Source of the DNA: Minisyncoccota bacterium
GTDB taxonomy: Bacteria; Patescibacteriota; Minisyncoccia; UBA6257; 2-01-FULL-56-20
Direction: 5' to 3'
Assembly (NCBI GenBank): GCA_041664245.1
Contig: JBAYLC010000003.1
Coordinates: 394 to 64,393, forward strand
Length of the DNA stretch: 64,000 nucleotides
Part shown: positions 11,559 through 63,006 of the stretch, in pieces
Layout of the letters: every line of letters begins with the position of its first letter
Numbering within the stretch: position 1 is the first letter of the stretch
Translations under genes and position numbers: made by a program
The notes under the pieces: generated by a model
Told to the model about the DNA's origin: nothing
The model's input: the letters and a program-made list of their open reading frames with translations, nothing else
Databases searched by the model: none

Positions 11559-11981
11559 TTAAAGGTAATGCTCGAATTCCTTCGGTAACCGGTTAATTTC
11601 GTTTAAATAAAAAATCATTCTTTTAAAATCACTGTTTCCCTCCAAATAGGTTTTTTCTTCTAATCCGCTGGCTTGATGATTGGAAATTTTTTCCCTCAAT
11701 TCCTTTAGGGCTTTTTCATGGCCTAAAATATAATTTCTTATTTCCTCCTCACTCATAAGCTCGCCAACAGTCGCAGTTTGATTTTCCCTCATCTTTTTTT
11801 CTACCCCTCTCATATGACTTTCTAAATCTCCGCTCCCAAAAGAACTTCCCACATCCTTTTGGTCGCCAAAAGATTGCTCCAGAAATATTTTTGGAGGGCT
11901 TTCAGTCTCCCCACCCTTCATTGGATTTACTATCTCTTTTTCCCCTCCGCTAATTTTTGGCTCTCCAACCTCCGAATTCAT
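11559..11981 (-). CDS. hypothetical protein (acidic, low complexity)
   Basis: This 140 aa ORF sits in an operon between polA and tsaE. Confidence 0.5.
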   Translation of the reverse strand: MNSEVGEPKISGGEKEIVNPMKGGETESPPKIFLEQSFGDQKDVGSSFGSGDLESHMRGVEKKMRENQTATVGELMSEEEIRNYILGHEKALKELREKISNHQASGLEEKTYLEGNSDFKRMIFYLNEINRLPKEFEHYL

Positions 11982-14122: not shown

Positions 14123-14151
14123 TTGACAAATTAAAAATAGTATGCTAGAAT
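14123..14151 (+). promoter_or_regulatory. sigma70-type promoter TTGACA-N17-TAGAAT
   Basis: The sequence matches a consensus -35 and a near-consensus -10 with 17 nt spacing. Confidence 0.6.
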
Positions 14152-14157
14152 ATCCAG

Positions 14158-14368
14158 GCAATTGAAGATAGTTGTTTTAAATCTGGGGTAAGGAATTAAT
14201 CCTAGTTAACGGACGGTTTGGCTCCGGCGAGACCCATCCTCGGAATAATTCTTCGCTCTTCTAAATTTCATTTAGAAGGGTCTCTCGCCGCCCTTCCCAT
14301 AAGGTTGGCCCCCAGATTTAAAATAACTACCCACCCGCTCAACTTCCAAGTTGGGTGGGTTTCGTTTT
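14158..14368 (+). ncRNA. candidate sRNA (~210 nt) between promoter and intrinsic terminator; rod-like long imperfect hairpin
   Basis: A 14 bp closing helix pairs ttttaaatctgggg with ccccagatttaaaa. An inner stem pairs ccggcgagaccc with gggtctctcgccg, and there is an apical hairpin ttctaaat/atttagaa. The 3' terminator is acccaccc..gggtgggt followed by a T-run. There is no ORF. Confidence 0.5.
14329..14368 (+). terminator. intrinsic terminator (acccaccc-loop-gggtgggt + TTCGTTTTT)
   Basis: An 8 bp GC-rich stem is followed by a T-run. Confidence 0.7.
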
Positions 14369-14463
14369 TCTCCCCTTCTCTAAATAAATCTCTACTTTTT
14401 CTGTAAGCGAGTATTTTTAGAAGCTTTTTGAATACTTCAAAGAAAAGCGACTTTTCTGTTTTT

Positions 14464-14568
14464 AGGGAGCTATCGGAAGTTTCAAAAGCTTGGTCCCCGT
14501 CACAACGGGGTTTTGAAACCGAGATGCAGGCGCGCTTAGCCGCTGGAAGCTAAGCGACGCCGGTCCCT
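14464..14568. ncRNA. unclassified structured RNA motif, copy A (P1 AGGGA/TCCCT; P2 9 bp; P3 hairpin after conserved GCTTGGT; conserved CCGAGAWGCAGGCGC; P4 hairpin with loop CGCTGGAA)
   Basis: It is a paralogue of the element at 49754-49860. All stems are preserved through compensatory changes. It lies in intergenic sequence directly 3' of the pilB stop. Strand is undetermined. Confidence 0.55.
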
Positions 14569-14591
14569 AAAAACAGAAGAGGAGCGCTCGC

Positions 14592-16277
14592 TTAAACCCC
14601 AATTAACCCCGTCACTTTCTCCACCTCATCAAAAGTCGTAATCCCATCTAAAACTTTTAGAATGCCATCTTCCTGCATCGTTACCATTCCCTGGCTAATT
14701 GCGAATTTTCGAAGCGTCACCTCTGAAGCTTCTTTCAAAATTATTTCTTCAAATTCAGCCCCAGCTTCCAAAAATTCAAAAATTCCAATTCTTCCCTTAT
14801 AACCAAAACCATTGCACTCATTACATCCCACCACTTCGTAAATTGTCCGCCCCGCCGATAAATCATATTTTTCTCTATTTACCCTCTCCGGCATTTTTTC
14901 TATCAGCTCTTTAATCTTATTTAGCTCTTCGGCAGCCAAATGCTTTTCTTTTTTGCACTTATCACAAAGCCTTCTTACTAGCCTTTGGGCAATAACCAAA
15001 CTAAGCGCCGGCCCGATTGTCGGCGTTTTTACTCCCAAATCAACCAATCGGGGAACTGCCCCGATCGCGTCGTTGGTATGGAGCGTCGAGAAAACCACGT
15101 GTCCGGTCAAGGCCGCCTGCATTGCAATCTCCGCAGTTTCCAAATCCCTAACCTCGCCAACCAAGATCACATCCGGATCCTGCCTAACAATTGCCCTCAA
15201 CCCTTTTGCAAAAGTGTATTGCGCGCTCGGGTCCACTTGTGTCTGTTCAATTCCCTCGAGCCGATATTCGATAGGATCTTCAATTGTAATAATTTTTGTT
15301 TCCGAGCTGGAGAGAGATTGCAAAAACGCGTAGAGCGTCGTTGTTTTTCCTGATCCGGTCGGTCCCGTATTTAAAACTAATCCGTTTGGCTTGCCTAATT
15401 GTTTTTTCACAATTTCCAAATCATCTTCCCGAAGTCCCAAATCTTTAAGTCCAACTTTTATCGCGTCAGGATTTAATATCCTCATCACAATCGTCTCGCC
15501 GAATTCCGAAGGAATAATTGAAACTCTCATCTCAATTTCCTTCCCTGCTACATTAATTGTGAATCGCCCGTCTTGCGGTTCATTGCGGACATTTATCTTC
15601 AGCCCTGAGAGAAGTTTAATCCGCGAAACTAATTTTTCATAACTTATTCTCGGTAAATTACTCAAAACATCATGAAGAAGACCGTCCACTCTGAATCGCA
15701 CCCTCACAATTTCTTCTCCGGCTTCGAAGTGGATATCCGATGCCCGGCTTATTAGTCCCTCTGCCAAAACCATTTCGAAAATATCCGTCGTGCTGAGTGT
15801 TGCAAAATTAGAACCCTCTAACTCCTCTTTAAATACTTGAATGCTAACCCATCGCTTTGTAAATTCGCCGAACTTTTGTTTGTCGATTCCCACCTTGCCG
15901 GTGATATCTTTCGCCTCCGGTGATACATATTCATAAAAAGCCCAAGCCTGTTTAACACTACTAAGCGAAGCTACAAAAACTTTAACTTTATATTTTTTTA
16001 ATTCCAAATCTTTTATCACCTCCGCCACTTCGGGGAAACGGGGATCCGTCGTCACCACCGCCAGCTTCTGAACGCTAATCTCCACTGCTGCCAGTTTAGC
16101 TTGCTTTGCCTTTTCCTCCGGAACTAATTTAACCGCCTCTAAGGCAATTGCCGCCTTACTTAAATCGAGGTAGGGATATCCTATCTCTTCTGCTAAACGC
16201 TTGGCAGCCCTTTCCTCCGAGTCTCTTCGGAGTCTCCCCAATTTCTGTTCAATCGGTATTGAGTTATTATTCGCCAT
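14592..16277 (-). CDS. pilB: type IV pilus assembly / type II secretion ATPase (GspE/PilB family)
   Basis: The 561 aa product has Walker A (GPTGSGKTTT), Asp/His boxes and a tetracysteine motif, CDKC..CNEC. Confidence 0.9.
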   Translation of the reverse strand: MANNNSIPIEQKLGRLRRDSEERAAKRLAEEIGYPYLDLSKAAIALEAVKLVPEEKAKQAKLAAVEISVQKLAVVTTDPRFPEVAEVIKDLELKKYKVKVFVASLSSVKQAWAFYEYVSPEAKDITGKVGIDKQKFGEFTKRWVSIQVFKEELEGSNFATLSTTDIFEMVLAEGLISRASDIHFEAGEEIVRVRFRVDGLLHDVLSNLPRISYEKLVSRIKLLSGLKINVRNEPQDGRFTINVAGKEIEMRVSIIPSEFGETIVMRILNPDAIKVGLKDLGLREDDLEIVKKQLGKPNGLVLNTGPTGSGKTTTLYAFLQSLSSSETKIITIEDPIEYRLEGIEQTQVDPSAQYTFAKGLRAIVRQDPDVILVGEVRDLETAEIAMQAALTGHVVFSTLHTNDAIGAVPRLVDLGVKTPTIGPALSLVIAQRLVRRLCDKCKKEKHLAAEELNKIKELIEKMPERVNREKYDLSAGRTIYEVVGCNECNGFGYKGRIGIFEFLEAGAEFEEIILKEASEVTLRKFAISQGMVTMQEDGILKVLDGITTFDEVEKVTGLIGV

Positions 16278-16337: not shown

Positions 16338-18974
16338 ATGAGCGCTTTTGAGACAGCACGAAACAAGGAATTAGAAGAAGCGGATACCGCCGCTAAAGAA
16401 AAAAAACCAACGCTGGAGACACCGCCAATAGGCAGTATAGTTACCGGCAGGGATGCGTTTGAAAAAGCCACGGTTACCGGCGAGTTAAAAGAAATAAAAA
16501 TTATTTATGGTGAATTATTTGGCGTAATTATTGATAAGGAAAAAGTTCAGCACAAAATTAAAATTGATCCAAGCGCCGAAATAATTATGCCCCCAAAGGC
16601 AGTGGAATCAGAAAACCAACCGCCGATTAGCAAGATTGAGAGAATAATCGACACCACCCCAAATGCAGTAACGCCCCTGGCAGAAACGGACATCGAATCA
16701 ATTCTCTTAGATCCAGATGGACCAACAGTTAAAAAACAAGTGGCCGACATCCTAGATTACGAAGAGTTATTAAAGGATGCGCCATCTGAAATAGAAAGAA
16801 AACTCCCGCCTCCACCGCCGCCGCCGAAAGCCGAAAATCCCGAACCAAAAATATCCAAAGCGCCTTTAGAAGCGGAAAGTAAACTAGCGGAAATTATTGA
16901 AGCCACTCCTATATCTAATTATGTTAGTGGTGCTGAAATAAAAGATATTCCACTCGAACCAGAACCAACACTAGTAAAAAATGAAGAAGCCGGAATAGTT
17001 GAAACCGCCACCGAAAAAAATGAAGCCACCACCCCGGAAAGTCCGGTCGAGGAAATCAATCGCCGCCTAGCCACTCTCAAAAATGAATTCGACACTAACG
17101 TCGGAAGTTTCTCCCCTGAAAGTTGGTCCGCGGGGAAAAAAGAGATAATTTCTATCCTGAGTAAAGACTTAGGCGTCCTTACTAACGACCTAGAAAACCC
17201 TCTTAAAGTTAGCTCAACCAAATTGCAACAGTTAACTGATTCTTTCTTCTATTCTCCTTCTGAATTTGAGAATAATTACGAAAAAATTAAGGGGGAAATC
17301 AGCTCAGAACTTAACCCCCAGCCGGAAAGCAAAGAATTTAAAGAGGAATCGGTCTCTAGAAATGAAGCGCCGTCAATAATTACAAAGGCAGAAGAGGCAA
17401 TAGAAACCGAAAAATTAAATGCGAAAACGGAGGTGGTGATTCCTCCTCTAGAAGAAAAAACGCCCGCTGATCTTAAAGAAGAGACTGTCCCCATTACTCC
17501 AGAGTTAACCGAAAAAACTCCGGCTGGAAAAATGGAATCTGCCCGGGCCGCCTATCTCGATCTTTATGAAAAAAACCGTCTCTTTCAAAAAAGATACGAG
17601 CGTGGAAGTTTATTCACCGAAGATGAGCAAGGTGAATGGACGCAAATTAAAAATGATCTGGAAATAAAAGGAGAAGAATACCGAGCGTCCCGCCAAGGAT
17701 ACTTAGAATCAACCCTCAAACAATTTGAAACCGAGCAGATCGACAAAGAACTTGCCTTCTTCAAACATGACGCTGATTTCCCTAACCTCCCCCTCGGCGC
17801 TAAGTTTGATGCTAATGAATACAAAAAATCTCGGCTCCAAGAAAAAGCCACCCTAGAATTAACCGCCGAATTTAAAAAACTGCACGACGCCAAAACCGAA
17901 AAAGCCGCTGAAAGTTACGGTCCAAAATTTTTAGAAAGAATCCGCGAATTTGGTCGGAACTACAACAAGCAGCCTCTTTATAGAAAATTAATGCTCGGCG
18001 GGGCAATTATGGGCGGTGGCATGCTAGCCGCTTTAGGCGGTGGTGGAATTGGTGCCGCTTTCGCCGCCGCTATTGGAGTTGGAAAAATTGCTCAAAGAGC
18101 CGTTTCTGGAACAGCTATGTTTGTCACCGTCGAAGCTCTCGTGAAAAGAAAGCAAGATAAAATCCTAGCCAAAAAAATCGAAAAAAACGAAATTTACTTC
18201 AAGGCTGAGATAGACGCCGCCGCCGAAAGATTCACTAACGGTGAAAAAGCCGGCGGCCTAATCGATTTCCTCAAAACTCAGGATAAAACTCTGGAAAATA
18301 GATACAACGAAAATCAGGCGGAATTAAAGAAAATGGAAAAAAGAATGGCTTATCGGCGAATATTCTATGCCGGAGCTGGCGGCCTAGTAATCGGCACCGG
18401 CCTCTTATCCTACGGCGTCCACAAGGCTATTAACGTTTTTGGATCTCTCACCGATCTTCACTCCGTTGAAGCCCCCAGTGGCCACAGTGGATTTGAGGCT
18501 CCGACTGATACCTCTCATGTTGCACCCAGTGAAACCATTCACTCAACTAGCCCCGATACCCTCTCCGCCAAACCGACACCCAATATTTTTGATGAACGTA
18601 TTAACGCCAAACCCGATCTCAGCAAAATCACTAATCTAGAATCGGAACTATCCCGCCCCATCGCTACCGTAAAACCCGGTGGCAGCTTCTGGGAAGCCGC
18701 TAAATCACTTCTCCATGAGAGTAAAATTTCGCCGGAAAAATTTGACGAAGCTTGGCGCCATTCCTTCGCCGAAATAAATGGTGTTAAAACTCCGTTAAGC
18801 GAACTTGGTCTCTCTCATCCCGGCGACCACCTTACTTTCATCGACGACCCCGGCAATCCCCACTTCGAAATTTCCGACCACCTCAAATTCGGTACTGATG
18901 AAGATTTGTTTAAATATCTCAAATCAGCCGGCAAAACTATCCCTCAATGGTTATCCGAAAAATTCGGAAAATGA
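16338..18974 (+). CDS. large hypothetical protein: acidic/Pro-rich disordered N-half (PPPPPPPK), two Gly-rich TM helices, ~170 aa C-terminal domain
   Basis: The 878 aa ORF is divergent from pilB and I recognised no domain in it. Confidence 0.6.
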   Translation: MSAFETARNKELEEADTAAKEKKPTLETPPIGSIVTGRDAFEKATVTGELKEIKIIYGELFGVIIDKEKVQHKIKIDPSAEIIMPPKAVESENQPPISKIERIIDTTPNAVTPLAETDIESILLDPDGPTVKKQVADILDYEELLKDAPSEIERKLPPPPPPPKAENPEPKISKAPLEAESKLAEIIEATPISNYVSGAEIKDIPLEPEPTLVKNEEAGIVETATEKNEATTPESPVEEINRRLATLKNEFDTNVGSFSPESWSAGKKEIISILSKDLGVLTNDLENPLKVSSTKLQQLTDSFFYSPSEFENNYEKIKGEISSELNPQPESKEFKEESVSRNEAPSIITKAEEAIETEKLNAKTEVVIPPLEEKTPADLKEETVPITPELTEKTPAGKMESARAAYLDLYEKNRLFQKRYERGSLFTEDEQGEWTQIKNDLEIKGEEYRASRQGYLESTLKQFETEQIDKELAFFKHDADFPNLPLGAKFDANEYKKSRLQEKATLELTAEFKKLHDAKTEKAAESYGPKFLERIREFGRNYNKQPLYRKLMLGGAIMGGGMLAALGGGGIGAAFAAAIGVGKIAQRAVSGTAMFVTVEALVKRKQDKILAKKIEKNEIYFKAEIDAAAERFTNGEKAGGLIDFLKTQDKTLENRYNENQAELKKMEKRMAYRRIFYAGAGGLVIGTGLLSYGVHKAINVFGSLTDLHSVEAPSGHSGFEAPTDTSHVAPSETIHSTSPDTLSAKPTPNIFDERINAKPDLSKITNLESELSRPIATVKPGGSFWEAAKSLLHESKISPEKFDEAWRHSFAEINGVKTPLSELGLSHPGDHLTFIDDPGNPHFEISDHLKFGTDEDLFKYLKSAGKTIPQWLSEKFGK

Positions 18975-24005: not shown

Positions 24006-24011
24006 CAAATA

Positions 24012-24046
24012 AAAATCACCGATTTAAATCGGTGATTTTTATTTCA
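24012..24046. terminator. bidirectional intrinsic terminator (atcaccgattt/aaatcggtgat palindrome flanked by A-run and T-run)
   Basis: A perfect 11 bp palindromic stem has A-runs and T-runs on both sides. Confidence 0.7.
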
Positions 24047-28443: not shown

Positions 28444-29025
28444 TTAATGATTTTTTATTATTTCATCAATAAGTCCGTACTCTTTTGCCTCAACCGGCGT
28501 CATGTAAAAATCTCGATCGGTATCCTTCTCTATTTTTGTAACCGGCTTCCCAGCGTGCTTTGCTAAAATCTGATTAATTTTATCTTTAATTTTAATAATG
28601 TGCCGCGCTGTGATTTCCACTTCAATCGCTTGCCCCTCTACTCCCCCCATCACTTGGTGGAGCATCACTTCCGAATTGGGTAAAGCAAATCTTTTCCCCT
28701 TTTTTCCTGCCGCCAAAAGAACCGCCCCCATCGAGGCCGCAATACCCACGCACATTGTCTGCACATCCGCCTTCACATATTGCATTGTGTCATAAATCGC
28801 CAATCCCGCCGTCACCGATCCTCCCGGTGTGTTCAAATAAATTCTGATGTCCTTTTTTGGATCTTCATGATCTAAAAATAAAAGCTGGGCAATCACCGCG
28901 TTTGCCACCCCATCCGTAATCGGCCCTCCCAGAAAAACTATTCTGTCTTTAAGAAGGCGAGAGTAAATATCATACGCCCTCTCTCCATATTGCGATTTCT
29001 CTATAACTGTTGGTATGAGATTCAT
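28444..29025 (-). CDS. clpP: ATP-dependent Clp protease proteolytic subunit
   Basis: The 193 aa product has the catalytic serine context (GIAASMGA) and the histidine (MLHQ). Confidence 0.95.
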
Positions 29026-29068
29026 ATTCTTATTATACGCTATCGCATACTACATATACTATATGATG

Positions 29069-31078
29069 TTACCTAAAAAACTGCACTAATAGCAACGCCA
29101 CGATATTTATAACCTTGATCAACGGATTGATCGCCGGCCCCGCTGTGTCCTTATACGGATCGCCAACGGTATCACCAGTCACGGCCGCTTTATGCGCTTC
29201 TGATCCTTTTCCGCCAAAATGGCCTGACTCAATATATTTTTTAGCGTTATCCCAAGCTGCTCCACCCGATGTCATCGAAATCGCCACAAAAAGTCCAGAT
29301 ACAATCGTCCCGATTAAAAATCCGCCAAGCGCCGCTTTGCCTAAAACAAAACCGACCACTAGTACCGAGACAATCGGCAAAAGCGCCGGCACAATCATTT
29401 CTTGTAAAGCGGCCTTCGTCACGATATCCACCGCTTTGCCATATTCCGGTTTTCCCGATCCGTCCATAATTCCTTTTATTTCCCTAAACTGCCGGCGAAT
29501 TTCTTCAACCAGCGTCCCCGCTGTTTTGCCAACCGCCTTCATTGCGATTGATCCAAAAAGATAAGGAACCGAAGCCCCAAGGAAAAGCCCGATCACTACT
29601 ATCGGCGTCTGAAGATCAAAAGAAAAGCTCTCTGTCAGTTTCTTCACCTCTTCAACATAACCGGAAAAAAGAACCAAAGCCGCCAGTCCGGCCGAAGCAA
29701 TCGCGTAACCCTTAGTTATAGCTTTAGTAGTGTTCCCCACCGCATCCAAAGCATCTGTCGCTTCCCGAACATCATTCGACTGACCGGTCATCTCGGCAAT
29801 CCCACCTGCATTATCGGTAATCGGCCCAAAAGCATCTATCGCCACAATAATCCCCGCCACCGAAAGCATTGAAGTCGCCGCAATCGCGATTCCGTATAAA
29901 CCTGCCAACGAAAATGCTCCCAAAATTCCAAGCACGATAATCACAATCGGCAAAAAAGTCGCTTCGGTTCCTACTGAAAGTCCCATTATAATATTCGTCC
30001 CATGCCCTGACTTTGATGCCTCTGCGATACTCTTAACCGGCCGATATTTTTTCGCCGTATAATAATCAGTTACCAAAACCATTAGCACCGTCACCGCTAA
30101 TCCAACTAAACTAGCCATAAAAATATTCGCAAAGTTGTCCGGGAAAAAATATTTTGAAGCGAAAAAGAAAAACACGGCTGACACAACAAGCGCCACCGTT
30201 AATCCTTTATAAAGCGCCCCCATTATTGAATTATTTTTACCCAGCTTCACAAAAAAAGTTCCTATTATTGAAGCTACAATTGCCAACCCACCCAAAACAA
30301 GCGGGAACTGAACTTGAAACGGAGACAAGTGTCCGAGTCCAACACCAATTAAAATCGCCGCCGTAAGCGTCACTGCATAGGTTTCAAAAAGATCCGCCGC
30401 CATTCCCGCGCAATCACCGACATTGTCGCCAACGTTATCCGCGATCACCCCGGGGTTCCTCGGATCATCCTCCGGAATTCCCGCTTCGATCTTCCCAACC
30501 AAATCTGTTCCCACATCCGCCGCTTTGGTAAAAATTCCTCCCCCCAATCTAGCGAAAACTGAGATAAGCGAACTTCCAAAAGCGAGCCCGATAAGCACAC
30601 CGGTACCACCACTCAAAATATCAGCCTGAAACATAAAGAAAAAAAGTGAGACCGCTAAAAGGCCCAACCCTACCACTAAGAAACCAGTCACCGATCCGCC
30701 CAAAAAGGCCACTCTAAATGCCTTCGCTAAACCATGCTTGGCTGCTTCCGTTGTCCGCGAATTAGTATCCACCGCTGTCATCATCCCCAAATAACCCGCC
30801 AAAGCCGAAGTGAAAGCGCCAACCAAAAATCCAAAAGCAATTATTTGCCCCGACGCATTAAATTTCATCATCGCCATAATCAAAAACGCGATTACAATCG
30901 CCACATATACAACCGTTTTATTCTGCCGCCGTAAATAACTCTTTGATCCCTCTTTAATTGCGTCCCGAATCGCCAGCATCTTTACATCTCCAGACGGATA
31001 TCGCTTGACTGACTTGATCAAGAACACTCCAAAAACGATCGACGCTAATGCCAAACCGACTGATAAAAATACATTCAT
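29069..31078 (-). CDS. hppA: membrane-bound proton/sodium-translocating pyrophosphatase
   Basis: The 669 aa polytopic product has the [17 protein letters not shown] and DNVGDNVGD motifs. Confidence 0.95.
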
Positions 31079-38766: not shown

Positions 38767-41700
38767 CTATATCTTCCTCACCCCCACCCAAATTTCTTCA
38801 CCGTCTAATTTAGTAATAATCTCCACCAAAAACTTTTCCGATTTTTTATAACTAATTGATTCCGCGCCCACCTCCTTTTTAAATGAATCTTCGTTTTTAT
38901 CAATTATTTTTCGCAAGCTCTCGGGTAACTCCATCATTCCCATGATTCGATCCTCTGCGCTTAGTCCCGCTTTCGCTCTCAAATCCTGAACCAATCTCAC
39001 AAATTCCCTAACCAATCCCTCTTCTTTTAATTCTTTAGTAATATTCAAATCCAACTCCACCTCTCCGGAAATTTTGTCGTTAAATTGTACTTCCTTCACA
39101 TTTACCTCATCGGCTAAAATCCGAATTAACTCCTTATTCTTAATTCCTAAATCTTTATTCTTAATTCTCAAAGCCGCCAAAGGTTGGCGGACTTTGATTC
39201 CCGCCTCCGCCCGCTTAGCTAGCCCCAACGCTGCTAATCTTCTCACTTCTGCCATCTCTTCTAAAATTTTTGATTTTTTTTCTCTTGTTTTTAATTCCGG
39301 CCACCTCTCTAGATGTACTGATATTTCATTCTTGATACCTGATTCCCTATTCTTAATTCCTTCAAAAATAACCTCCGCAAAAAATGGCGTAAACGGTGCA
39401 ATTAATTTCGTTATTTCTTGAATCACGTAACCCAGTGTTTGCGATACCGCTGTATAATCTTTCTCGCTTATTGGTTTCTGTAGCCTTCGCCGCGACCTCC
39501 GAATATACCACCGTGATAAATCATTAATCAATTCCTCGATAACTATTGTCGCCTCTCTTACTTCGTAATTCTCGAGGTGTTTAGTTGTCTTATCAATCGT
39601 TTCATTAAGCCGCTCCGAAATCCATTGATCTAAAATATTTCGTGATTCACGATTTGCTATTTGTGATTTGCCATTAGCATACGTGTAATAAAACAAGAAC
39701 GAATTCCATAAAATCAAATGAAATTTCCGGGAAGTTTTTACAATTTCCGCCTCGTCGAAATTCCGAGGCTCTCCCGCCGGCGCCGCATTATAAAAATACC
39801 ACCTAACTGCATCTATCCCGTATTTCTCAATCATCGTCGCTGGCATAACAATATTTCCTTTTGATTTTGACATTTTCTGGCCAAATTTATCGTTTATAAG
39901 CCCAAGGCAAATAACATTTTTATAAGGTGCTTCAAAACCCAAAAGAGTCGCCACCGCTAAAAGGGTGTAAAACCACCCGCGCGTCTGATCTACTCCCTCA
40001 GAAATATAATCTGCTGGATACTGTAAATCTTTTAATCCTTTATTCTGTTCAAACGGCCAATGCGCCTGCGCTAGTGGCATCGCCCCCGAATCAAACCAAA
40101 CATCGGCAATTTCTTTCACCCTTTTCATTTTTCCGCTGCATTTTTTGCAACCAAAAACCATTTCGTCCGCAAACGGCCGATGTAGATTGATCTCCCCTGT
40201 TCTGTCTCGTGGGTTAAGCTTCAAATCAGTTTTTAAAAAATCTGCTACATTTATAAAAATCCCCTCCTTTTTTCCTATTTCTTGAATCGCTTCTTTTTCT
40301 GTCCATCCCCTCATTATTTGAGCAAACATCCAAATTGGATATTCGTGGCTTACAATCAAAATTCTCTTTCCCTTGTATTTCTTTTCAGTATCTTTAATAA
40401 AATCCCAAAGTCGAGTTCGCAAATCTAAAAGCGACTCTCCTCTCTCCGGTTTCTTCGAAAATTTATCCTCATAAGTTGGAAATTCATCGTGATATTCTTT
40501 TAAAGGTCGGCCCGAAAATTCAGCCACTTGTATCTCCCGAATTCGCTTATCGAAATTTACCTTCTTAATTCCTAAGATTTTTGAGGTAATCTGAGCCGTC
40601 TCTTTTGTCCGCAAAAGATCAGAGGCAAAAATCAATTGAATTTTTTCTTTTTTCAAAACCTGAGCGGTTTTCTCCACCTGTTTTCGGCCTCGATCGGTTA
40701 AGTGAAAGTTCTGATTGCCCGAATCAGCAATCCCCAACATCTGTGTTTCCGATTCTCCATGTCTCATAAATAAATACTCATTATTAGCCTCCCCCATCCT
40801 ATCACTCAATTCATCAAGACTGCCGATTACCTCTTCCTTGCCGCACTTACCACAAATCCAAATCGGCAAAGGCGTTCCCCAATATCTTTCCCGGGAAAAA
40901 TTCCAATCCTTCACCTCTTTTAACCATTCACCAAACCGGCCTTCTTTAATGTGTTTTGGCAGCCAATTTATTTTTTTATTCGCCGCCATCAACTCATTTT
41001 TTACCGCCGTGGTCTTCACAAACCAAGCATCTCGCGCATAATAAAGAAGTGGCGTTTTGCATCGCCAGCAGAATGGATATTCATGAGAATATTTTTCTAT
41101 CTTTAGTAAATTCTCGTTCTTTTCTAAAATACTGAAAATTTTCTTATCCGTTTCGGGATCCTTAACATACATTCCGCTCAAGCCCGACACCTCCTTTATG
41201 AATTTCCCCTGTTCATCAACCGTGTGAAATTGCGACAAACCGGCTTTAGCGCCTAACTTATAATCGTCTTCGCCATACATCACCGCCGTGTGTACCACCC
41301 CCGTTCCATCCGTCGTCGTCACAAAATCCGCCGCGTAAATCTTATAAGAATTCTTATTCTTTAATTTAGAAACATTAAAAAGCGGCTCATAATTCAACCC
41401 AATTAGATCCTTACCCTTGGTTGTTTTTTCAATTTTTCCCCGGACGCCCACCGCCTCAATCCGCTCTTTCGCCACCACAAAAATTTCTCCGCTCTCTGAT
41501 TCAAGCAAAACATAATCAATCTTTTCTCCCACCGCCAAAGCCACATTTCCCGGCAGTGTCCACGGCGTCGTTGTCCACGCCAACACATAAGTTTTGTCGT
41601 TCGTGTACCAGTCTCCAATTTTCTGTTTCGATTTTAATTTGAATCTAACGTAAACCGATTTATCTTCCACCGTCTCGTATCCCTGCGCCACCTCATGAGA

Positions 41701-42267
41701 AGAAAGGCCCGTCCCGCACCGTGTGCACCACAAAATAACCTTGTATCCTTTATACAAAAGCTTCCTCGCCCAAAACTGCTTAATAATCCACCACAATGTT
41801 TCCATATAATCCTTTTCATAAGTGATATATGGATTTTTTAAATCCAGCCAAAACCCCATCCGCTCTGTTAATTGCTCACCCTCTTCTTTGTACTGCCAAA
41901 CCGACTCCTTACACTTCTGATTGAATTTCTCAATTCCATATTCCTCAATCTCTTTTTTTGACTTCAACCCAAGCTTTTTTTCCACTTCAATTTCCACCGG
42001 CAAACCGTGCGTGTCCCAGCCGCTCCGCCGCGGCACATAAAAACCGCGCATAGTTTTATAGCGTAGAATAATATCCTTAAAAGACCGTGCTAAAACATGG
42101 TGGATACCCGGCCGCCCATTCGCCGTTGGCGGTCCCTCATAAAAGGTGAATTTTTTCTTTCCCTTATTTTTTTCGAGTGATTTCTCGAAAATTTTATTTT
42201 TCTTCCAAAACTCCAAAACCTTCTCCTCGGCTTTAGCCAAACTAAAATCTTTAAAATCCGCAAACAT
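38767..42267 (-). CDS. ileS: isoleucine--tRNA ligase with inserted histidine-phosphatase (PGAM-like) domain
   Basis: It has HIGH (PGIHH), the CP1 editing region, a CxxC zinc knuckle and KMSKS. A ~200 aa RHGES histidine-phosphatase domain lies between VIGSLDEL and LHRPF. The start may be 42297. Confidence 0.9.
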   Translation of the reverse strand: MFADFKDFSLAKAEEKVLEFWKKNKIFEKSLEKNKGKKKFTFYEGPPTANGRPGIHHVLARSFKDIILRYKTMRGFYVPRRSGWDTHGLPVEIEVEKKLGLKSKKEIEEYGIEKFNQKCKESVWQYKEEGEQLTERMGFWLDLKNPYITYEKDYMETLWWIIKQFWARKLLYKGYKVILWCTRCGTGLSSHEVAQGYETVEDKSVYVRFKLKSKQKIGDWYTNDKTYVLAWTTTPWTLPGNVALAVGEKIDYVLLESESGEIFVVAKERIEAVGVRGKIEKTTKGKDLIGLNYEPLFNVSKLKNKNSYKIYAADFVTTTDGTGVVHTAVMYGEDDYKLGAKAGLSQFHTVDEQGKFIKEVSGLSGMYVKDPETDKKIFSILEKNENLLKIEKYSHEYPFCWRCKTPLLYYARDAWFVKTTAVKNELMAANKKINWLPKHIKEGRFGEWLKEVKDWNFSRERYWGTPLPIWICGKCGKEEVIGSLDELSDRMGEANNEYLFMRHGESETQMLGIADSGNQNFHLTDRGRKQVEKTAQVLKKEKIQLIFASDLLRTKETAQITSKILGIKKVNFDKRIREIQVAEFSGRPLKEYHDEFPTYEDKFSKKPERGESLLDLRTRLWDFIKDTEKKYKGKRILIVSHEYPIWMFAQIMRGWTEKEAIQEIGKKEGIFINVADFLKTDLKLNPRDRTGEINLHRPFADEMVFGCKKCSGKMKRVKEIADVWFDSGAMPLAQAHWPFEQNKGLKDLQYPADYISEGVDQTRGWFYTLLAVATLLGFEAPYKNVICLGLINDKFGQKMSKSKGNIVMPATMIEKYGIDAVRWYFYNAAPAGEPRNFDEAEIVKTSRKFHLILWNSFLFYYTYANGKSQIANRESRNILDQWISERLNETIDKTTKHLENYEVREATIVIEELINDLSRWYIRRSRRRLQKPISEKDYTAVSQTLGYVIQEITKLIAPFTPFFAEVIFEGIKNRESGIKNEISVHLERWPELKTREKKSKILEEMAEVRRLAALGLAKRAEAGIKVRQPLAALRIKNKDLGIKNKELIRILADEVNVKEVQFNDKISGEVELDLNITKELKEEGLVREFVRLVQDLRAKAGLSAEDRIMGMMELPESLRKIIDKNEDSFKKEVGAESISYKKSEKFLVEIITKLDGEEIWVGVRKI

Positions 42268-42651
42268 AGTATCTATATTCAAGCACAAAAAACACAATCA
42301 GTTCAAATTAGACCGAGCTTCCCTTTCGGTAAAAAATCAATTAAACTAGAGCAAAACAGAAAGATAGCCCCTCCTCTTCTCCACCGAACCGCTCTTCTCT
42401 TCTCAAGGAGCAAACCAGGAGAAACAGACTTCCCGTCACTATCTTTCTGTTCTTTTTTTCGCCTTCCCAGCCGAACTAACTACTTCGGCAGAATAGGCAA
42501 GCAGAGCGCCTCCCCTTCTAATTACCACCAAAATAAACTATTCTTAAAATCAAGAGGCAAGATAGATAAGAACTCAAAAGGGACAGACAGCCAAGCTATA
42601 TCCAATAGGGCAAAACGTTCAACCACCTATCTATCTTGCCCTTTTTATTCT

Positions 42652-46027: not shown

Positions 46028-47971
46028 ATGGCATCAAAAGAATTAATCGATTATATAAAACAAACTTTAAGTCAGGGTTTTCCTGAAGAGCAAATCCGAA
46101 AAGAACTCCTAGGCGCAGGCTGGTTACTGGGTGACATAAACGAAGCGTTCGGCTCCGTGAAAAGTCCGACTCAAACGCAACCGCCGTCTCAAATCCGCTC
46201 GCCGCAAACTTCGGTCTATCCCTCTAATCAACCGATCCAAGTAAATAAATCCCAACCCACCGCCTCTCCAATCTCCGACACCAAGCGCGACCCCCTTTCC
46301 AGTCCATTCTTATCAACCCCCTCCACCAACCAACCCGTCAATCAATTTTCTAATACCGCCTTCAACACTCCAAAAAAATCAAAACTTGGTTTAATAATTG
46401 CCATCATCGCTGTCGTTCTAATTCTCGGCGGCGGTGTCGCTTACGCTTACACTCAAAAACTCTGGTTCTTCGCCCCCTCCGTTTCCGACGAACAATTAGT
46501 CGGCAAACTTTTTGAAAATATCAAAGGAATATCCTCGGCCTCATATAATCTTTCTCTCTTGCTTGAGACCGCCACTCGAGACCCGAACATCCAACCCGTC
46601 TCCTCTACTCCAGAAATCGATTCAAGTTTGTCTAATCTCGGCACCGATTCAAAATTCAGTTTCAAAATTTCCGGTGATTCCCAAAAACAAACCTCCACTG
46701 AAAATCATTTTAAAATCAACGCCGACGTAAAAATCACCGACGGCCTTAGCTTCGCCGGCGAAGCAGAATTTTTAAACAAAAACTCTTCAACCTATTTAAA
46801 GCTAAACCAACTCCCCCCGCTTCCAATCCCCGGTTTTGATTTAGGAAAAATAACCAACAAGTGGATTAAAATTGATAATGAGAGCTTTGCTGATCTCGCC
46901 GGATTTCCGCCGACCGCAATCCTCCCGGCAGCCAATCTTGATTCCAATGCCAATTCAGGCAATCAAGTTTCCGAATCCCTTAAGTCATTTTTTGACCTAA
47001 CCCAAAAGCAATCCCTACTCGTCTTCGGTAAATCTGTAAAAGAAAAAAATGGTGATGCCGATACCTACCACTACAAACTAACTATCGATAAAACAAAAAT
47101 CATTCCTTTCTACCAAGAACTAGGAAAAGAGATAAATGCTAAATTTGGAGATAGTTCACCGTTTAAAATAGACGAACAATTTTTAGCCGCCTTTCAGGGC
47201 CCCGACTTTGATAAAAGTTTTGATTACTTAAGCAAGAATAGCTCTTTTGATCTCTGGGTTGATCCCATAACCGCCCTTCCTCAAAAGCTCTCTTTTGTTT
47301 TTAAAATCGCCCCTGACTCATCTGTAACAGATCTAAAAGACAAACAAGTCGTCATCAGCGCCAATCTGGAACTTTCGAACATCAATCAACCCGTTACTAT
47401 AACCGAACCAACCGAATTCTTATCGAGCGACGATCTCGCCTTAGCCCTAAGCGGCTTAACTAAGGAGCAATATCAGATTGAAAAACAAACTAACAACATC
47501 GAAGAACTTCGCGCAACTCTCGCTAGATTCAGAAAACTTGCCGGCATTTATCCCGACTCACTCGATAAATTAACAATAACCGGCGACGACATTTTAATAT
47601 TAAACCCAAAATCCACCCTCCTGAAGCCAAATAAAGCTAGCAGCACCGACTATTGCGACTATTTTATCGGAACCGGAGGAACATACTATGACGAATTCAT
47701 GCCTTCTTCATACTCTCCATCCCCAACTTGTGGAAATCTAAAATTCACCAAATCGGTCCCTCAAGACGCCTACACCAAAACTCCCTATACCTACACCAAA
47801 GTCGGTGATGATTACAAACTTACTTACACCATAACCTTCCCTGCCGTTTCAACTTCCACCGCCACTTCCACCGATAATACCGCAGAGTTTAATCTTCGTC
47901 TTAAGAAATACAAAAACGGCACCAACACCGCCACTAAACTCTGGCTCTCCCAAGAAGCGAAAAGTAAATAG
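46028..47971 (+). CDS. hypothetical membrane-anchored extracellular protein (647 aa)
   Basis: It has an N-terminal cytoplasmic helix, a Pro/Gln/Ser-rich linker, one TM and a large extracytoplasmic domain. It is followed by a terminator. Confidence 0.6.
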   Translation: MASKELIDYIKQTLSQGFPEEQIRKELLGAGWLLGDINEAFGSVKSPTQTQPPSQIRSPQTSVYPSNQPIQVNKSQPTASPISDTKRDPLSSPFLSTPSTNQPVNQFSNTAFNTPKKSKLGLIIAIIAVVLILGGGVAYAYTQKLWFFAPSVSDEQLVGKLFENIKGISSASYNLSLLLETATRDPNIQPVSSTPEIDSSLSNLGTDSKFSFKISGDSQKQTSTENHFKINADVKITDGLSFAGEAEFLNKNSSTYLKLNQLPPLPIPGFDLGKITNKWIKIDNESFADLAGFPPTAILPAANLDSNANSGNQVSESLKSFFDLTQKQSLLVFGKSVKEKNGDADTYHYKLTIDKTKIIPFYQELGKEINAKFGDSSPFKIDEQFLAAFQGPDFDKSFDYLSKNSSFDLWVDPITALPQKLSFVFKIAPDSSVTDLKDKQVVISANLELSNINQPVTITEPTEFLSSDDLALALSGLTKEQYQIEKQTNNIEELRATLARFRKLAGIYPDSLDKLTITGDDILILNPKSTLLKPNKASSTDYCDYFIGTGGTYYDEFMPSSYSPSPTCGNLKFTKSVPQDAYTKTPYTYTKVGDDYKLTYTITFPAVSTSTATSTDNTAEFNLRLKKYKNGTNTATKLWLSQEAKSK

Positions 47972-49126: not shown

Positions 49127-49349
49127 GTTTTTCTCCTTGTCTGCCGGTATTTCTCCGACAAGAAATGGGTTATTGCCTATATATTTAGTCAGTCAATCTA
49201 ATTATCAAATTATCAAGTTGCCCTAATAGTATAGCACGAATACTATCACTTTGTCAAGTGGCACTTTTGAGTTCATTTCCGTCCATCTATCACCCCTCTT
49301 CTGACAATAAAAGCCTTGGTTTACAAGGCTTTTATTTCAATTCCGTCGA

Positions 49350-49669
49350 TGTGGAGATGGGCGGAATCGAACCGCCGTGTAAAAGTAATATCAGTTAGCC
49401 ATCTACGAGCGTAGTTTCGCCGAAGCGAGACAAAGTTTGCTCTATTAGTTTAGTTCCGCTCCCCTAGAGCGAAAGAACAGAACGAGCCTCCTTATATAAG
49501 ACCGGACTTAGCCTAAGAGGCCCAGACCAGCCGATCCTCCGGCGTTATGCGTAAGCAAACGCTGGAGCTGCAACTTTTTGGTTGGCAGATATAAATTGTT
49601 TGCCAGATTAACGAGTTAGCGCTCGGCTCGCCGACTAATGACCTACTCCTATCGAAGCCATACATCCCC
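49350..49669 (-). ncRNA. ssrA: transfer-messenger RNA (tmRNA, ssrA)
   Basis: The 5' end is GGGGATGTATGGCTTCGATAGGAG and the 3' tRNA-like end is GGCGGTTCGATTCCGCCCATCTCCA. The acceptor pairs GGGGATG with CATCTCC. The internal tag reading frame ends ..AAPAFAYA-TAA. A terminator hairpin follows at 49302-49332. Confidence 0.85.
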
Positions 49670-49753
49670 ATATTCAATTTTCCCCTTTATTATACTAGAT
49701 ATCCCCAAAAAAGGCAAATTCACCTTTTTGCTCTCTGAGCGAGTACTTTTACT

Positions 49754-49860
49754 AGGAAGCTTTCGGAGGTATTGTGAGCTTGGTGTCCCGCTTTTACGGG
49801 ACTCACAATGCCGAGAAGCAGGCGCGTTTTGCCGCTGGAAGCAAAACGCCGCCGGTTCCT
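49754..49860. ncRNA. unclassified structured RNA motif, copy B (P1 AGGAA/TTCCT; P2 8 bp; P3 hairpin; conserved GCTTGGT and CCGAGAAGCAGGCGC; P4 hairpin with loop CGCTGGAA)
   Basis: It is a paralogue of 14464-14568 with covarying stems. It lies between the tmRNA promoter and a plus-strand terminator at 50031-50062. Confidence 0.55.
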
Positions 49861-50030
49861 AATAAAAAATACGAGCGAAAAGTTATCCACAGCCCCCCTT
49901 GACCGCTTCGCCTATTATTTTAAAATTAAGTTAGCTCATCGAAAACCTACTCCCGTTTGATATATAAGCGAGACTACTCGCACTCAGTATTGAAATCAAT
50001 TGCAGATTCTAATCTGCACCAACTATATAA

Positions 50031-50062
50031 CCCGTGTCCTAGACACGGGTTCATTTTTTATT
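50031..50062 (+). terminator. intrinsic terminator (cccgtgtc-ctag-gacacggg + T-run)
   Basis: The hairpin and T-run were read directly from the sequence. Confidence 0.7.
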
Positions 50063-50151
50063 TACAACCTTGACCATTTTTCATTTTTATTTTAAACTCA
50101 ACCGTCATTTACTAGCAACTTTGTATCACTTCACCACGAAAGGAGTAAATA

Positions 50152-50283
50152 ATGTCCATTCCTCCTCACGGAAAAAAGAGGAAAGATGAACGCAGGAAAA
50201 CAACAATCGGAATGGTGAATTGTAAACCCACGGGAGGCTTCGTTAAGCAAATATATACCGCCAGAAGAATGATAAGAGCCTAA
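50152..50283 (+). CDS. possible small basic protein/leader peptide (43 aa) upstream of infC
   Basis: A strong Shine-Dalgarno sequence, aaaggagtaaataATG, precedes it. It translates to MSIPPHGKKRKDERRKTTIGMVNCKPTGGFVKQIYTARRMIRA. A GC hairpin follows the stop. Confidence 0.35.
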   Translation: MSIPPHGKKRKDERRKTTIGMVNCKPTGGFVKQIYTARRMIRA

Positions 50284-50363
50284 CCCCCTCGGCCCGACCC
50301 TAACCGGTCGGGCCTCACTTTCTTCCCCAAAAACAAACAATAAGCTATAATCAAATCAATAAA

Positions 50364-62556: not shown

Positions 62557-62690
62557 TAATCTGAATTATATTAGAAATTCCATTTATGCGCCACAAACGG
62601 ATTCAACTAGGAAAGTCACCTTTTCGGTTTTAACGCCAAAACCCAATAATCCTATGAAACCTATGTTTCTCAACAAAAGTAGAAAATTAA

Positions 62691-62946
62691 ATGTTTAGCG
62701 CTAAACATCCCTGCTTGATCAAAAAGCCAGTATTGTTGGAAAATATACATATAATTAGAAATTAGCCAAAAAATTGTTTCGCGCTAAACACTCCAAGAAT
62801 TGGAGCCCCTCCTAATTATAAGGACATCAATGTTTCGCGCTAAACAATTAGTAATGCAAAAATACGGCAATAATACATATATATAATCAGGCAATCATAT
62901 ATTTGCCGTATTACTACATATATCAATGTTTAGCGCTAAACATTGA
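62691..62946. repeat. four copies of a perfect palindrome (core TGTTT[A/C]GCGCTAAACA; 62691-62708, 62776-62790, 62831-62846, 62923-62946), candidate operator array
   Basis: The palindromes are self-complementary by inspection. They sit in the divergent ruvA / yraN intergenic region. Confidence 0.6.
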
Positions 62947-63006
62947 TAACAAAACAAACACAAATAATAACTTCAAACAAATGATATAATTAAATAAACA
63001 CTCAAA

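Follow-up and report, generated by a model that had tools for sequence, protein, structure and literature searches.

Several families of trans-acting small RNAs (sRNAs) are present in bacterial genomes as multiple copies, such as Rsm X/Y/Z, LhrC1-5, the "cuckoo" alpha-r14 RNAs, and Qrr. The loops of these RNAs are invariant while their stems covary, and they have clear promoters, terminators, and short hairpins. Structured interspersed repeats, including REP/BIME, ERIC/IRU, Correia/NEMIS, and the bcr elements of Bacillus cereus, are recognized by overall sequence identity and adopt simple hairpin folds; those of the REP/BIME type carry a conserved 5' tetranucleotide and exist as tens to hundreds of near-identical copies. 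Self-cleaving ribozymes are also multicopy, clustered, and mixed in orientation, with variable stems and conserved loops. The phi29-type pRNA (RF00044) combines a long 5'/3' helix, a three-way junction, an arm in which a bulge is followed by a hairpin, and a second hairpin arm. Patescibacteria, whose genomes are about 1 Mb in size, have very few known regulatory RNAs.

The element studied here occurs twice, as copies A and B, in a 64-kb stretch of Patescibacteria DNA that was analyzed as a whole (the window), and it shares features with each of these systems. As in the multicopy sRNA families, diverged paralogs are found in each genome, some in tandem and some dispersed; the stems compensate while single-stranded loops stay constant; the copies are patchy among relatives; and they are intergenic and unlinked to the function of their neighbors. 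Unlike those sRNAs, the element has a closing stem of 18–25 bp and a three-way junction, and is without a recognizable terminator or consensus promoter. Its loops are also not anti-Shine-Dalgarno-like, and neither CsrA nor Hfq was found in 441 kb of CPR DNA. With the structured interspersed repeats it shares a size in the ~100–170 nt range, an intergenic location that is often right past gene ends, both orientations, a long hairpin that RNase III could potentially cleave, gain and loss, and truncated copies. However, apart from some 45 nt in its loops and junction its sequence is free to vary, it has a three-way junction with two decorated arms, and it shows compensation in place. Unlike the short, near-identical palindromes of REP/BIME or IS200/IS605, it is ~145 nt long with two diverged copies in 64 kb. 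The order of its elements is identical to that of phi29-type pRNA, but the GCUUGGU bulge and the CGCUGGAA loop are not complementary, so the ring-forming kiss of pRNA is absent; also unlike pRNA, the element has no Rfam match, is multicopy and chromosomal among housekeeping genes, and is absent from viral and phage collections.

Structure of the two copies in the window

Copy A lies on the plus strand at positions 14444–14588 and is composed of a distal G.A module, the closing stem P1, a three-way junction, and two arms. In P1, CTTTTCTGTTTTTAGGGA (14451–14468) pairs with TCCCTAAAAACAGAAGAG (14564–14581) over 18 bp, including one U.G. The stem is extended by the distal module, in which AAAGCGA (14444–14450) faces GAGCGCT (14582–14588) to give, outward from P1, A.G, G.A, C-G, G-C, and A.G. 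The junction pair is C14470-G14562. The first arm starts with P1b, a 4-bp helix of UAUC (14471–14474) and GAUG (14523–14526) that contains the covarying pair A14472-U14525, and continues with an internal loop in which GGA (14475–14477), conserved in the consensus, faces GA (14521–14522), probably as tandem sheared G.A pairs with a one-base bulge. P2 (14478–14487 with 14511–14520) is then joined by the invariant 7-nt bulge GCUUGGU (14488–14494) to the P3 hairpin, CCCCG tcacaa CGGGG (14495–14510). The second arm, P4 (14529–14561), has a GGCG/CGCC base, a C-G pair, the bulged A14557, a GCTTAGC/GCTAAGC helix, and the loop CGCTGGAA (14541–14548). On the same strand, the truncated 5' fragment of a B-like copy (TCTGTAAGCGAGTATTTTTAGAAGCTTT, 14403–14430) adjoins copy A and stops right past GAAGCU.

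Copy B, also on the plus strand (49736–49879), has the same layout. The 5' arm of its P1 (49743–49758) pairs with 49856–49872, with one C.A mismatch and a small bulge, and its distal module, TGAGCGA (49736–49742) with GAGCGAA (49873–49879), reads U-A, G.A, A.G, G-C, C-G, G.A, and A.G. This register was read by hand from the sequence; a gapless stem scan lost it because of the P1 bulge. The first arm (49761–49818) consists of P1b (49761–49764 with 49815–49818), the GGA/GA loop, P2 (49768–49777 with 49803–49812), the bulge GCTTGGT (49778–49784), and P3 (49785–49802). The P4 arm (49821–49853) carries the loop CGCTGGAA (49833–49840) and a bulged C49849. Copy B is flanked by the tmRNA promoter (49717–49689, minus strand) and the infC-operon promoter (49899–49926, plus strand), and the end of copy A is 3 nt away from the stop codon of pilB (14592–14594), a gene convergent with it. 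This is in agreement with the original prediction, which placed A 3' of pilB and B between the tmRNA gene and infC.

All the strings and stems named in that prediction are present at their positions, but the size of ~105 nt assigned to the motif was too small. The real size is ~145 nt, with the 18-bp P1 and the distal G.A module of copy A included. The stem list was correct as far as it went and missed P1b, as well as the GGCG/CGCC segment and bulged base that lengthen P4. Similarly, perfect Watson-Crick pairing holds for the stems as they were listed, whereas the extended P1 of copy B contains the mismatch and bulge described above. The statement that neither copy overlaps an ORF has to be corrected, since mechanical ORFs of 41–74 amino acids overlap both. 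The overlapping ORFs share the peptide E-x-Q-A-R-x-A-A-G-S; because the stems vary by compensatory changes, a coding role for these ORFs was ruled out.

In the alignment of A with B by the covariance model, 25 of the 44 modelled pairs are the same, 12 have both bases replaced, and 1 has a single base replaced; 28 of the 29 unpaired core bases are identical. The conserved blocks CCGAGANGCAGGCGC and GCCGCTGGAAGC each have exactly two mismatch-free occurrences in the 64 kb, where chance alone would give 0.19 and 0.08 matches under the number of mismatches allowed in the search, and the third conserved-block match among those listed requires one to two mismatches. A filters-off scan of the window with covariance model R2 recovered exactly the two predicted sites, with 131.4 bits for 14446–14585 (copy A) and 114.7 bits for 49736–49877 (copy B). 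The third-ranked match, at 18 bits, is the reverse strand of copy A; there were no further copies in this search of the window, the weak matches being ordinary AT-rich hairpins and terminators. Compared with shuffled sequences, the plus strand folds with z = −7.8 for copy A and z = −4.2 for copy B. No homology was found between the large proteins encoded near A (16338–18974) and near B (46028–47971).

The original prediction could not place the motif in any known noncoding RNA class, and the searches agree. At the gathering threshold, Rfam 15 identified only the tmRNA (49349–49669, minus strand) and tRNAs in the window. At E ≤ 10, both loci gave only unrelated noise (miRNA and snoRNA models) with no recurring family, as did three other copies at E ≤ 5. 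The topology brought 5S rRNA and SRP RNA to mind; both were rejected, as there was no model match and a single genome holds several divergent copies of the element. In the literature searched on structured RNAs, riboswitches, and sRNAs of CPR, Patescibacteria, Parcubacteria, and Saccharibacteria, we found no description of such a family. Strict and relaxed pattern scans of IMG/VR, followed by the model, gave chance matches and no true copy, and blastn of copy A against the INPHARED phages and plasmids gave no match. The family thus consists of uncatalogued structured elements of ~140–150 nt, of which A and B are diverged paralogs.

Covariation across the family and the likely functional strand

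Relatives were collected by pattern scans of GTDB genomes and JGI metagenomes and with the covariance models R1 and R2 (44 pairs). Most pattern matches fell by chance in GC-rich coding DNA, and inspection of their flanks led us to discard them. The search for more instances that the original prediction had proposed yielded 24 distinct homologs, every one on Patescibacteria contigs. In the final alignment of these 24 sequences (A6), which was fitted to the model and thus leans towards the structure, standard pairs make up 94.0% of cells, compared with 37–46% in controls with slid partners. Both-side changes occur at 36 of the 44 pairs, and none of 500 shuffles attained the observed values. A plain MAFFT alignment analyzed with RNAalifold, which is independent of the model, recovered these helices as well, with compensatory changes at 28 of 40 pairs. 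It is therefore statistically very well supported that the family is a real structured RNA under selection, and the earlier preference for selection on structure over recent duplication is borne out.

The family fold has a closing stem P1 of ~18 bp, an almost gap-free three-way junction, and two arms. The order of the first arm is a 4-bp P1b, the GGA/GA purine loop, P2, the invariant GCUUGGU bulge, and the variable hairpin P3, whose length and loop differ across the family; the second arm (P4) has a bulged A and the invariant loop (U)CGCUGGAA. All 10 pairs of P2 and all 10 pairs of P4 show both-side changes. The variable base of P1b in GCU-N-UCGG pairs with N' in CCGAGA-N'-GC and is A-U, U-A, or C-G among the copies; the corresponding alignment columns 27 and 84 hold C-G in 11 sequences, A-U in 9, and U-A in 2. 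The invariant features are GAAGCU-N-UCGGAGG, (A)GCUUGGU, CGAGA-N-GCA, the bulged A, the loop CGCUGGAA, and CGG-UUC. No covariation between loops, including that between the bulge and the P4 loop, was found by mutual information, and a tertiary pairing of these two was rejected because there was no such signal.

A module of tandem G.A, G-C, and C-G pairs is often present at the base of P1 across the family. It begins 18 bp from the junction in copy A and in L176, L099, and L094, and one step further in L146. In two homologs (L047 and L043) P2 is apparently absent, and the GAGCGA arms instead form G-C pairs alternating with tandem G.A. The GAGCGA flanks were also considered as target-site duplications, and this was rejected: the repeats are identical between different sites and pair with each other in a G.A-containing duplex, and they are therefore part of the element. 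The fixed length of P1 together with the noncanonical terminal module suggests that the stem is a handle of measured length, for processing or for the binding of a protein.

The strand proposed in the original prediction is favored by three features of the alignment. G.U pairs outnumber A.C pairs, 41 to 24 in all copies and 25 to 4 in the 13 with the highest scores, one U.G pair is near-invariant (21 of 24 homologs), and purines make up ~69% of the conserved unpaired bases when the plus strand is read, by a manual count on the consensus. G.T pairs in single-stranded DNA may be an alternative source of this strand signal.

Host range, genomic context, and turnover

The IF3 encoded in the window is 100% identical to a protein of a Candidatus Paceibacterota bacterium, and the relatives of its pilB are from Patescibacteria, Liptonbacteria, and Paceibacterota. 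Some homolog-bearing MAGs carry the name "uncultured Candidatus Saccharibacteria"; one genome so named (L001/L172) encodes housekeeping proteins 69–87% identical to those of the window. Because of these identities of IF3, pilB, and housekeeping proteins, L001/L172 included, we adopted a Paceibacterota-like range, and the family is treated as belonging to a Paceibacterota-like clade of Patescibacteria (CPR) plus distant low-GC and high-GC lineages of uncertain placement. For the organism of the window, Paceibacterota-like Patescibacteria is accordingly the more suitable label.

The downstream neighbor is convergent at 8 of the 11 loci with a scorable neighbor, and in six to seven loci the convergent stop codon is 2–10 nt from the end of P1, without an ordinary terminator in between. 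The flanking space is usually at least 56 nt upstream and only 2–10 nt downstream, an asymmetry that fits a unit with an upstream promoter and without need of a separate terminator. At five loci, the element is closely preceded by the end of a co-oriented gene or sRNA. The copies at infC are co-oriented with this gene in four genomes, and a near-consensus TTGAC.-type promoter lies 10–25 nt downstream of the element; those in the window (copy B), L172, and L176 sit between divergent 5' ends. No copy was located in a 5' UTR or between a promoter and its ORF. The prediction had looked to the neighboring genes for a possible riboswitch ligand, but the neighbors (pilB, infC, rpoD, alaS, PPase/clpP, rpiB, mraZ, and iPGM) have no functional theme.

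No consensus sigma-70 promoter was found upstream of the copies, 7 of 21 copies having only 8 of 12 positions matched, and −10-like hexamers are in weak excess over the opposite orientation (p = 0.04). The neighboring genes, unlike the copies, have their own near-consensus promoters. Past P1, no U-tract terminator was found; P1 itself has a U-run on its 5' arm and an A-run on its 3' arm, the reverse of the terminators in the window, e.g., that at 24007–24044.

Comparison of orthologous sites showed that the element changes in place. In the pilB-ruvB spacer of L166, whose PilB is 91% identical, the core is kept while the rest of the spacer is unalignable; compared with copy A, three pairs are changed on both sides, P1 shows compensatory change, and P3 is replaced. 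At more distant pilB sites, L168 (PilB 67%) has a P1-like stem of 23 bp that is capped by a 46-nt tip of unrelated sequence, and L170 (64%) has only a bare P1-like hairpin, 2 nt past the stop codon. The site just upstream of the infC-operon promoter is occupied in the window, L176/L177, L172/L173, and L099, and the element is absent from it in L174, L179, L180, and L181. Between copy B and its counterparts in L176, L172, and L099, 17, 20, and 10 pairs, respectively, are changed on both sides with pairing kept, even in the "invariant" base of P4. In the two copies that follow rpoD (L025 and L098), both bases differ at 7 pairs. Between paralogs of a single genome, the number of such pairs is 12–18, again with pairing kept. 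The upstream regions of orthologous copies show no conservation.

Copies are also gained and lost. The L001 genome carries one between the H+-PPase gene and clpP, where the window (29025–29069) and L170 have only 36–43 nt. Truncated 5' fragments with the same breakpoint after GAAGCU were found in the window, L103, L081, L134, and L176, and the closely related contigs L081, L103, L134, and L126 differ in the copies present. Taken together, copies of the family are duplicated and lost, and the survivors are under structural selection in place.

Possible functions of the element

Our best reading, which we put forward tentatively, is that the element is a multicopy, stand-alone structured small RNA predicted to work through its invariant purine-rich loops. 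Each copy would be transcribed and expressed as its own stable small RNA rather than as the leader of an adjoining gene, and the invariant loops and junction would serve in trans as the platform to which a protein or another RNA binds, with the variable stems as scaffolding. The long P1 and its G.A module, as a device for processing or protein measuring, may define and protect the ends. Local and dispersed duplication would have expanded the family, and copies would be lost via deletion of the tip. We rank this reading highest because it alone fits all the contexts, including the sites between divergent promoters, and because it accounts as well for the unequal flanking spacers and for selection on copies where they sit. 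Its main weakness is the missing consensus promoter. The dispensable copies, the repeat-like fragments and gain and loss, the unconserved upstream regions, and the lack of a U-tract terminator also speak against it, and no candidate partner protein was found.

In the main rival reading, the copies are instead non-autonomous REP/MITE-like interspersed repeats, selfish or useful only secondarily, whose folded RNA or single-stranded DNA is recognized by a trans-acting enzyme for their spread. We regard this as possible but rather unlikely. It would account for multiple copies in both orientations, clustered as well as dispersed, for the different copy content of the four related contigs, for the recurrent fragments broken after GAAGCU, for the clean loss of the tip in L170 with the P1 hairpin remaining, for the lineage-specific copy at PPase-clpP in L001, for the preference for the space between gene ends, and for the lack of a convincing promoter. 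However, paralogs and orthologs change by compensation while their flanks diverge, and such compensatory change in each copy needs in-place selection, which is foreign to inert transposon copies. The termini are not conserved inverted repeats, as the arms of P1 differ and covary within one genome, and the GAGCGA repeats are no target-site duplications. Moreover, the examined window genes and 441 kb of CPR DNA showed no transposase, IS608-type TnpA, or reverse transcriptase, tblastn with an IS608 TnpA query against these 441 kb, which include no complete genome, gave no match, and the viral, phage, and plasmid collections hold no copy. A more novel and rather unlikely reading is that the element is the RNA component of a hitherto undescribed CPR-specific ribonucleoprotein or a catalytic RNA, in which the stem would be the measured handle and the loops the predicted active or binding site. 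Genomes that have lost nearly all their other regulatory RNAs would then maintain this one as a small multigene family, and the element would be a new class of functional RNA instead of a repeat.

A purely local role would be that of a cis-acting hairpin between transcription units, that is, a terminator, insulator, RNase processing site, or 3'-end protector, with the three-way-junction tip recruiting a factor. The distance of 2–10 nt to a convergent stop codon in six to seven independent loci, the persistence of a P1-like hairpin at the pilB site after loss of the tip, the five loci with a co-oriented gene or sRNA ending just upstream, and the retention in place suit such a role. We nevertheless consider it unlikely: the infC-type copies have divergent 5' ends on either side, a setting in which transcripts are not expected to end; the adjoining stop codon belongs to a gene on the strand opposite to the one with the G.U pairs and purine loops; and the U-run/A-run layout of P1 is opposite to that of genuine terminators in the window. 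The pattern of copies, the restriction of conserved nucleotides to loops and junctions while stems vary freely, and the recurrent truncation near GAAGCU also recall a candidate new class of self-cleaving ribozyme. This is improbable, as no known ribozyme model matches, the near gap-free junction leaves no obvious catalytic core there, there is no loop-loop covariation to hint at a pseudoknot, and RNA cleavage does not yield DNA-level truncations. More improbable still is a riboswitch or cis-regulatory leader such as a distant relative of ykkC (guanidine-I, RF00442), which is suggested by an aptamer-like size and three-way-junction architecture, the short strings CUAGG(G) and CCGAGA, and the co-orientation with infC in four genomes. 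RF00442 is absent among the matches of both loci at E ≤ 10, as is every other riboswitch; the resemblance to ykkC, which the original prediction had called loose, is therefore superficial, the two sharing overall size but differing in helix layout, and no copy is in the 5' UTR of guanidine-related genes. A convergent gene faces 8 of 11 copies, and in the infC-type copies the operon promoter is downstream of the element. The absence of copies from 5' UTRs and the lack of a theme among neighbors thus make a riboswitch unlikely.

That several diverged copies, with 36 covarying pairs and ~45 invariant nucleotides, are retained in genomes of such small size makes it difficult to regard the family as junk. 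Should the copies be expressed as stand-alone RNAs, they would represent a new class of orphan RNA whose covariation signal is unusually clean. If they are a structured repeat, they would be the first such family described for the Patescibacteria group, and an unusual one in that each copy is under structural selection where it is located. Either reading merits an entry in the RNA databases, which would end the annotation of these regions as small hypothetical ORFs. Genetic tools for Patescibacteria are only now emerging.

The number of copies per contig varies. A second copy is present in L047, and L103 has four diverged copies within 1.1 kb, in both orientations, beside iPGM-tyrS-parB-parA; multicopy sRNA families likewise place diverged paralogs side by side.

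Candidate small RNA and the copy A site

Copy A, the element copy near pilB, has as its neighbour a second candidate small RNA (window 14123-14372, + strand). The near-consensus promoter of the candidate (14123-14151, +; TTGACA-17-TAGAAT with TG) is followed by about 190 nt of strong predicted structure (z = -7.5), which a 20-bp stem closes (14169-14188/14310-14329, +), and then by a clean intrinsic terminator (14333-14370, +). The sequence is kept in the same spacer, that between pilB and ruvB, in L166, L168, and L170, which are contigs from other Patescibacteria. A comparison of the candidate with Rfam returned zero matches, even at E<=10. A diverged relative of 6S RNA is one possible identity for the candidate.

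L168 has, at its counterpart of the orthologous copy A site (11690-11785), a 23-bp stem resembling P1, the closing stem of the element, around a 46-nt sequence. This tip is either unrelated to the family core or heavily decayed from it; the stem seems to persist without its usual tip.

The infC leader region

The interval between copy B and infC holds two promoter-plus-hairpin units (49899-50360, +), neither of which matched any Rfam family. The first is composed of a promoter (49899-49926, +; TTGACC-16-TAAAAT) and a terminator (50029-50060, +), and is also kept in the Patescibacteria contig L176. The second contains a promoter (50070-50098, +; TTGACC-17-TAAACT) and a GC-rich hairpin (50291-50314, +). 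The whole region resembles a leader of the attenuator type for the infC-rpmI-rplT operon, the control of which might conceivably be L20-type. In contig L174 (9600-9760), the position where relatives have the infC-type copy, the element upstream of the infC-operon promoter, contains a consensus promoter (TTGACA...TACAAT) and then another structured sequence, GC-rich and unlike the element (ggccgttcgccc...gggagagccgctttcccagtagcgggg).

Element arrays in L103 and related contigs

Four diverged element copies form an array in L103 (1-1100), an observation that also concerns L081, L117, L126, and L134. The spacers between the L103 copies are long and pyrimidine-rich on the element strand, some of them with CCUCCUCC-like runs, and the set of copies present varies among close relatives of this contig. 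In one strain variant (L126, 948-1086), the conserved UCGGAG is gone.

Proteins and palindromes of the window

The large ORFs near copy A (16338-18974, +; 878 aa) and copy B (46028-47971, +; 647 aa) are not related to each other, and no Pfam domain was found in either. The former is kept beside pilB in L166 with 69% identity. The window also encodes an isoleucyl-tRNA synthetase-like protein of 1176 aa (38767-42297, -), the catalytic domain of which is split into two halves by an inserted histidine-phosphatase (His_Phos_1) domain (residues 509-668); a protein of the same architecture (1184 aa) is present in L180. A 16-bp palindrome, TGTTT(A/C)GCGCTAAACA, occurs four times in a cluster at 62688-62950, where the copies sit within longer inverted repeats in an AT-rich spacer. 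The cluster is possibly an array of operators or a region resembling an origin.
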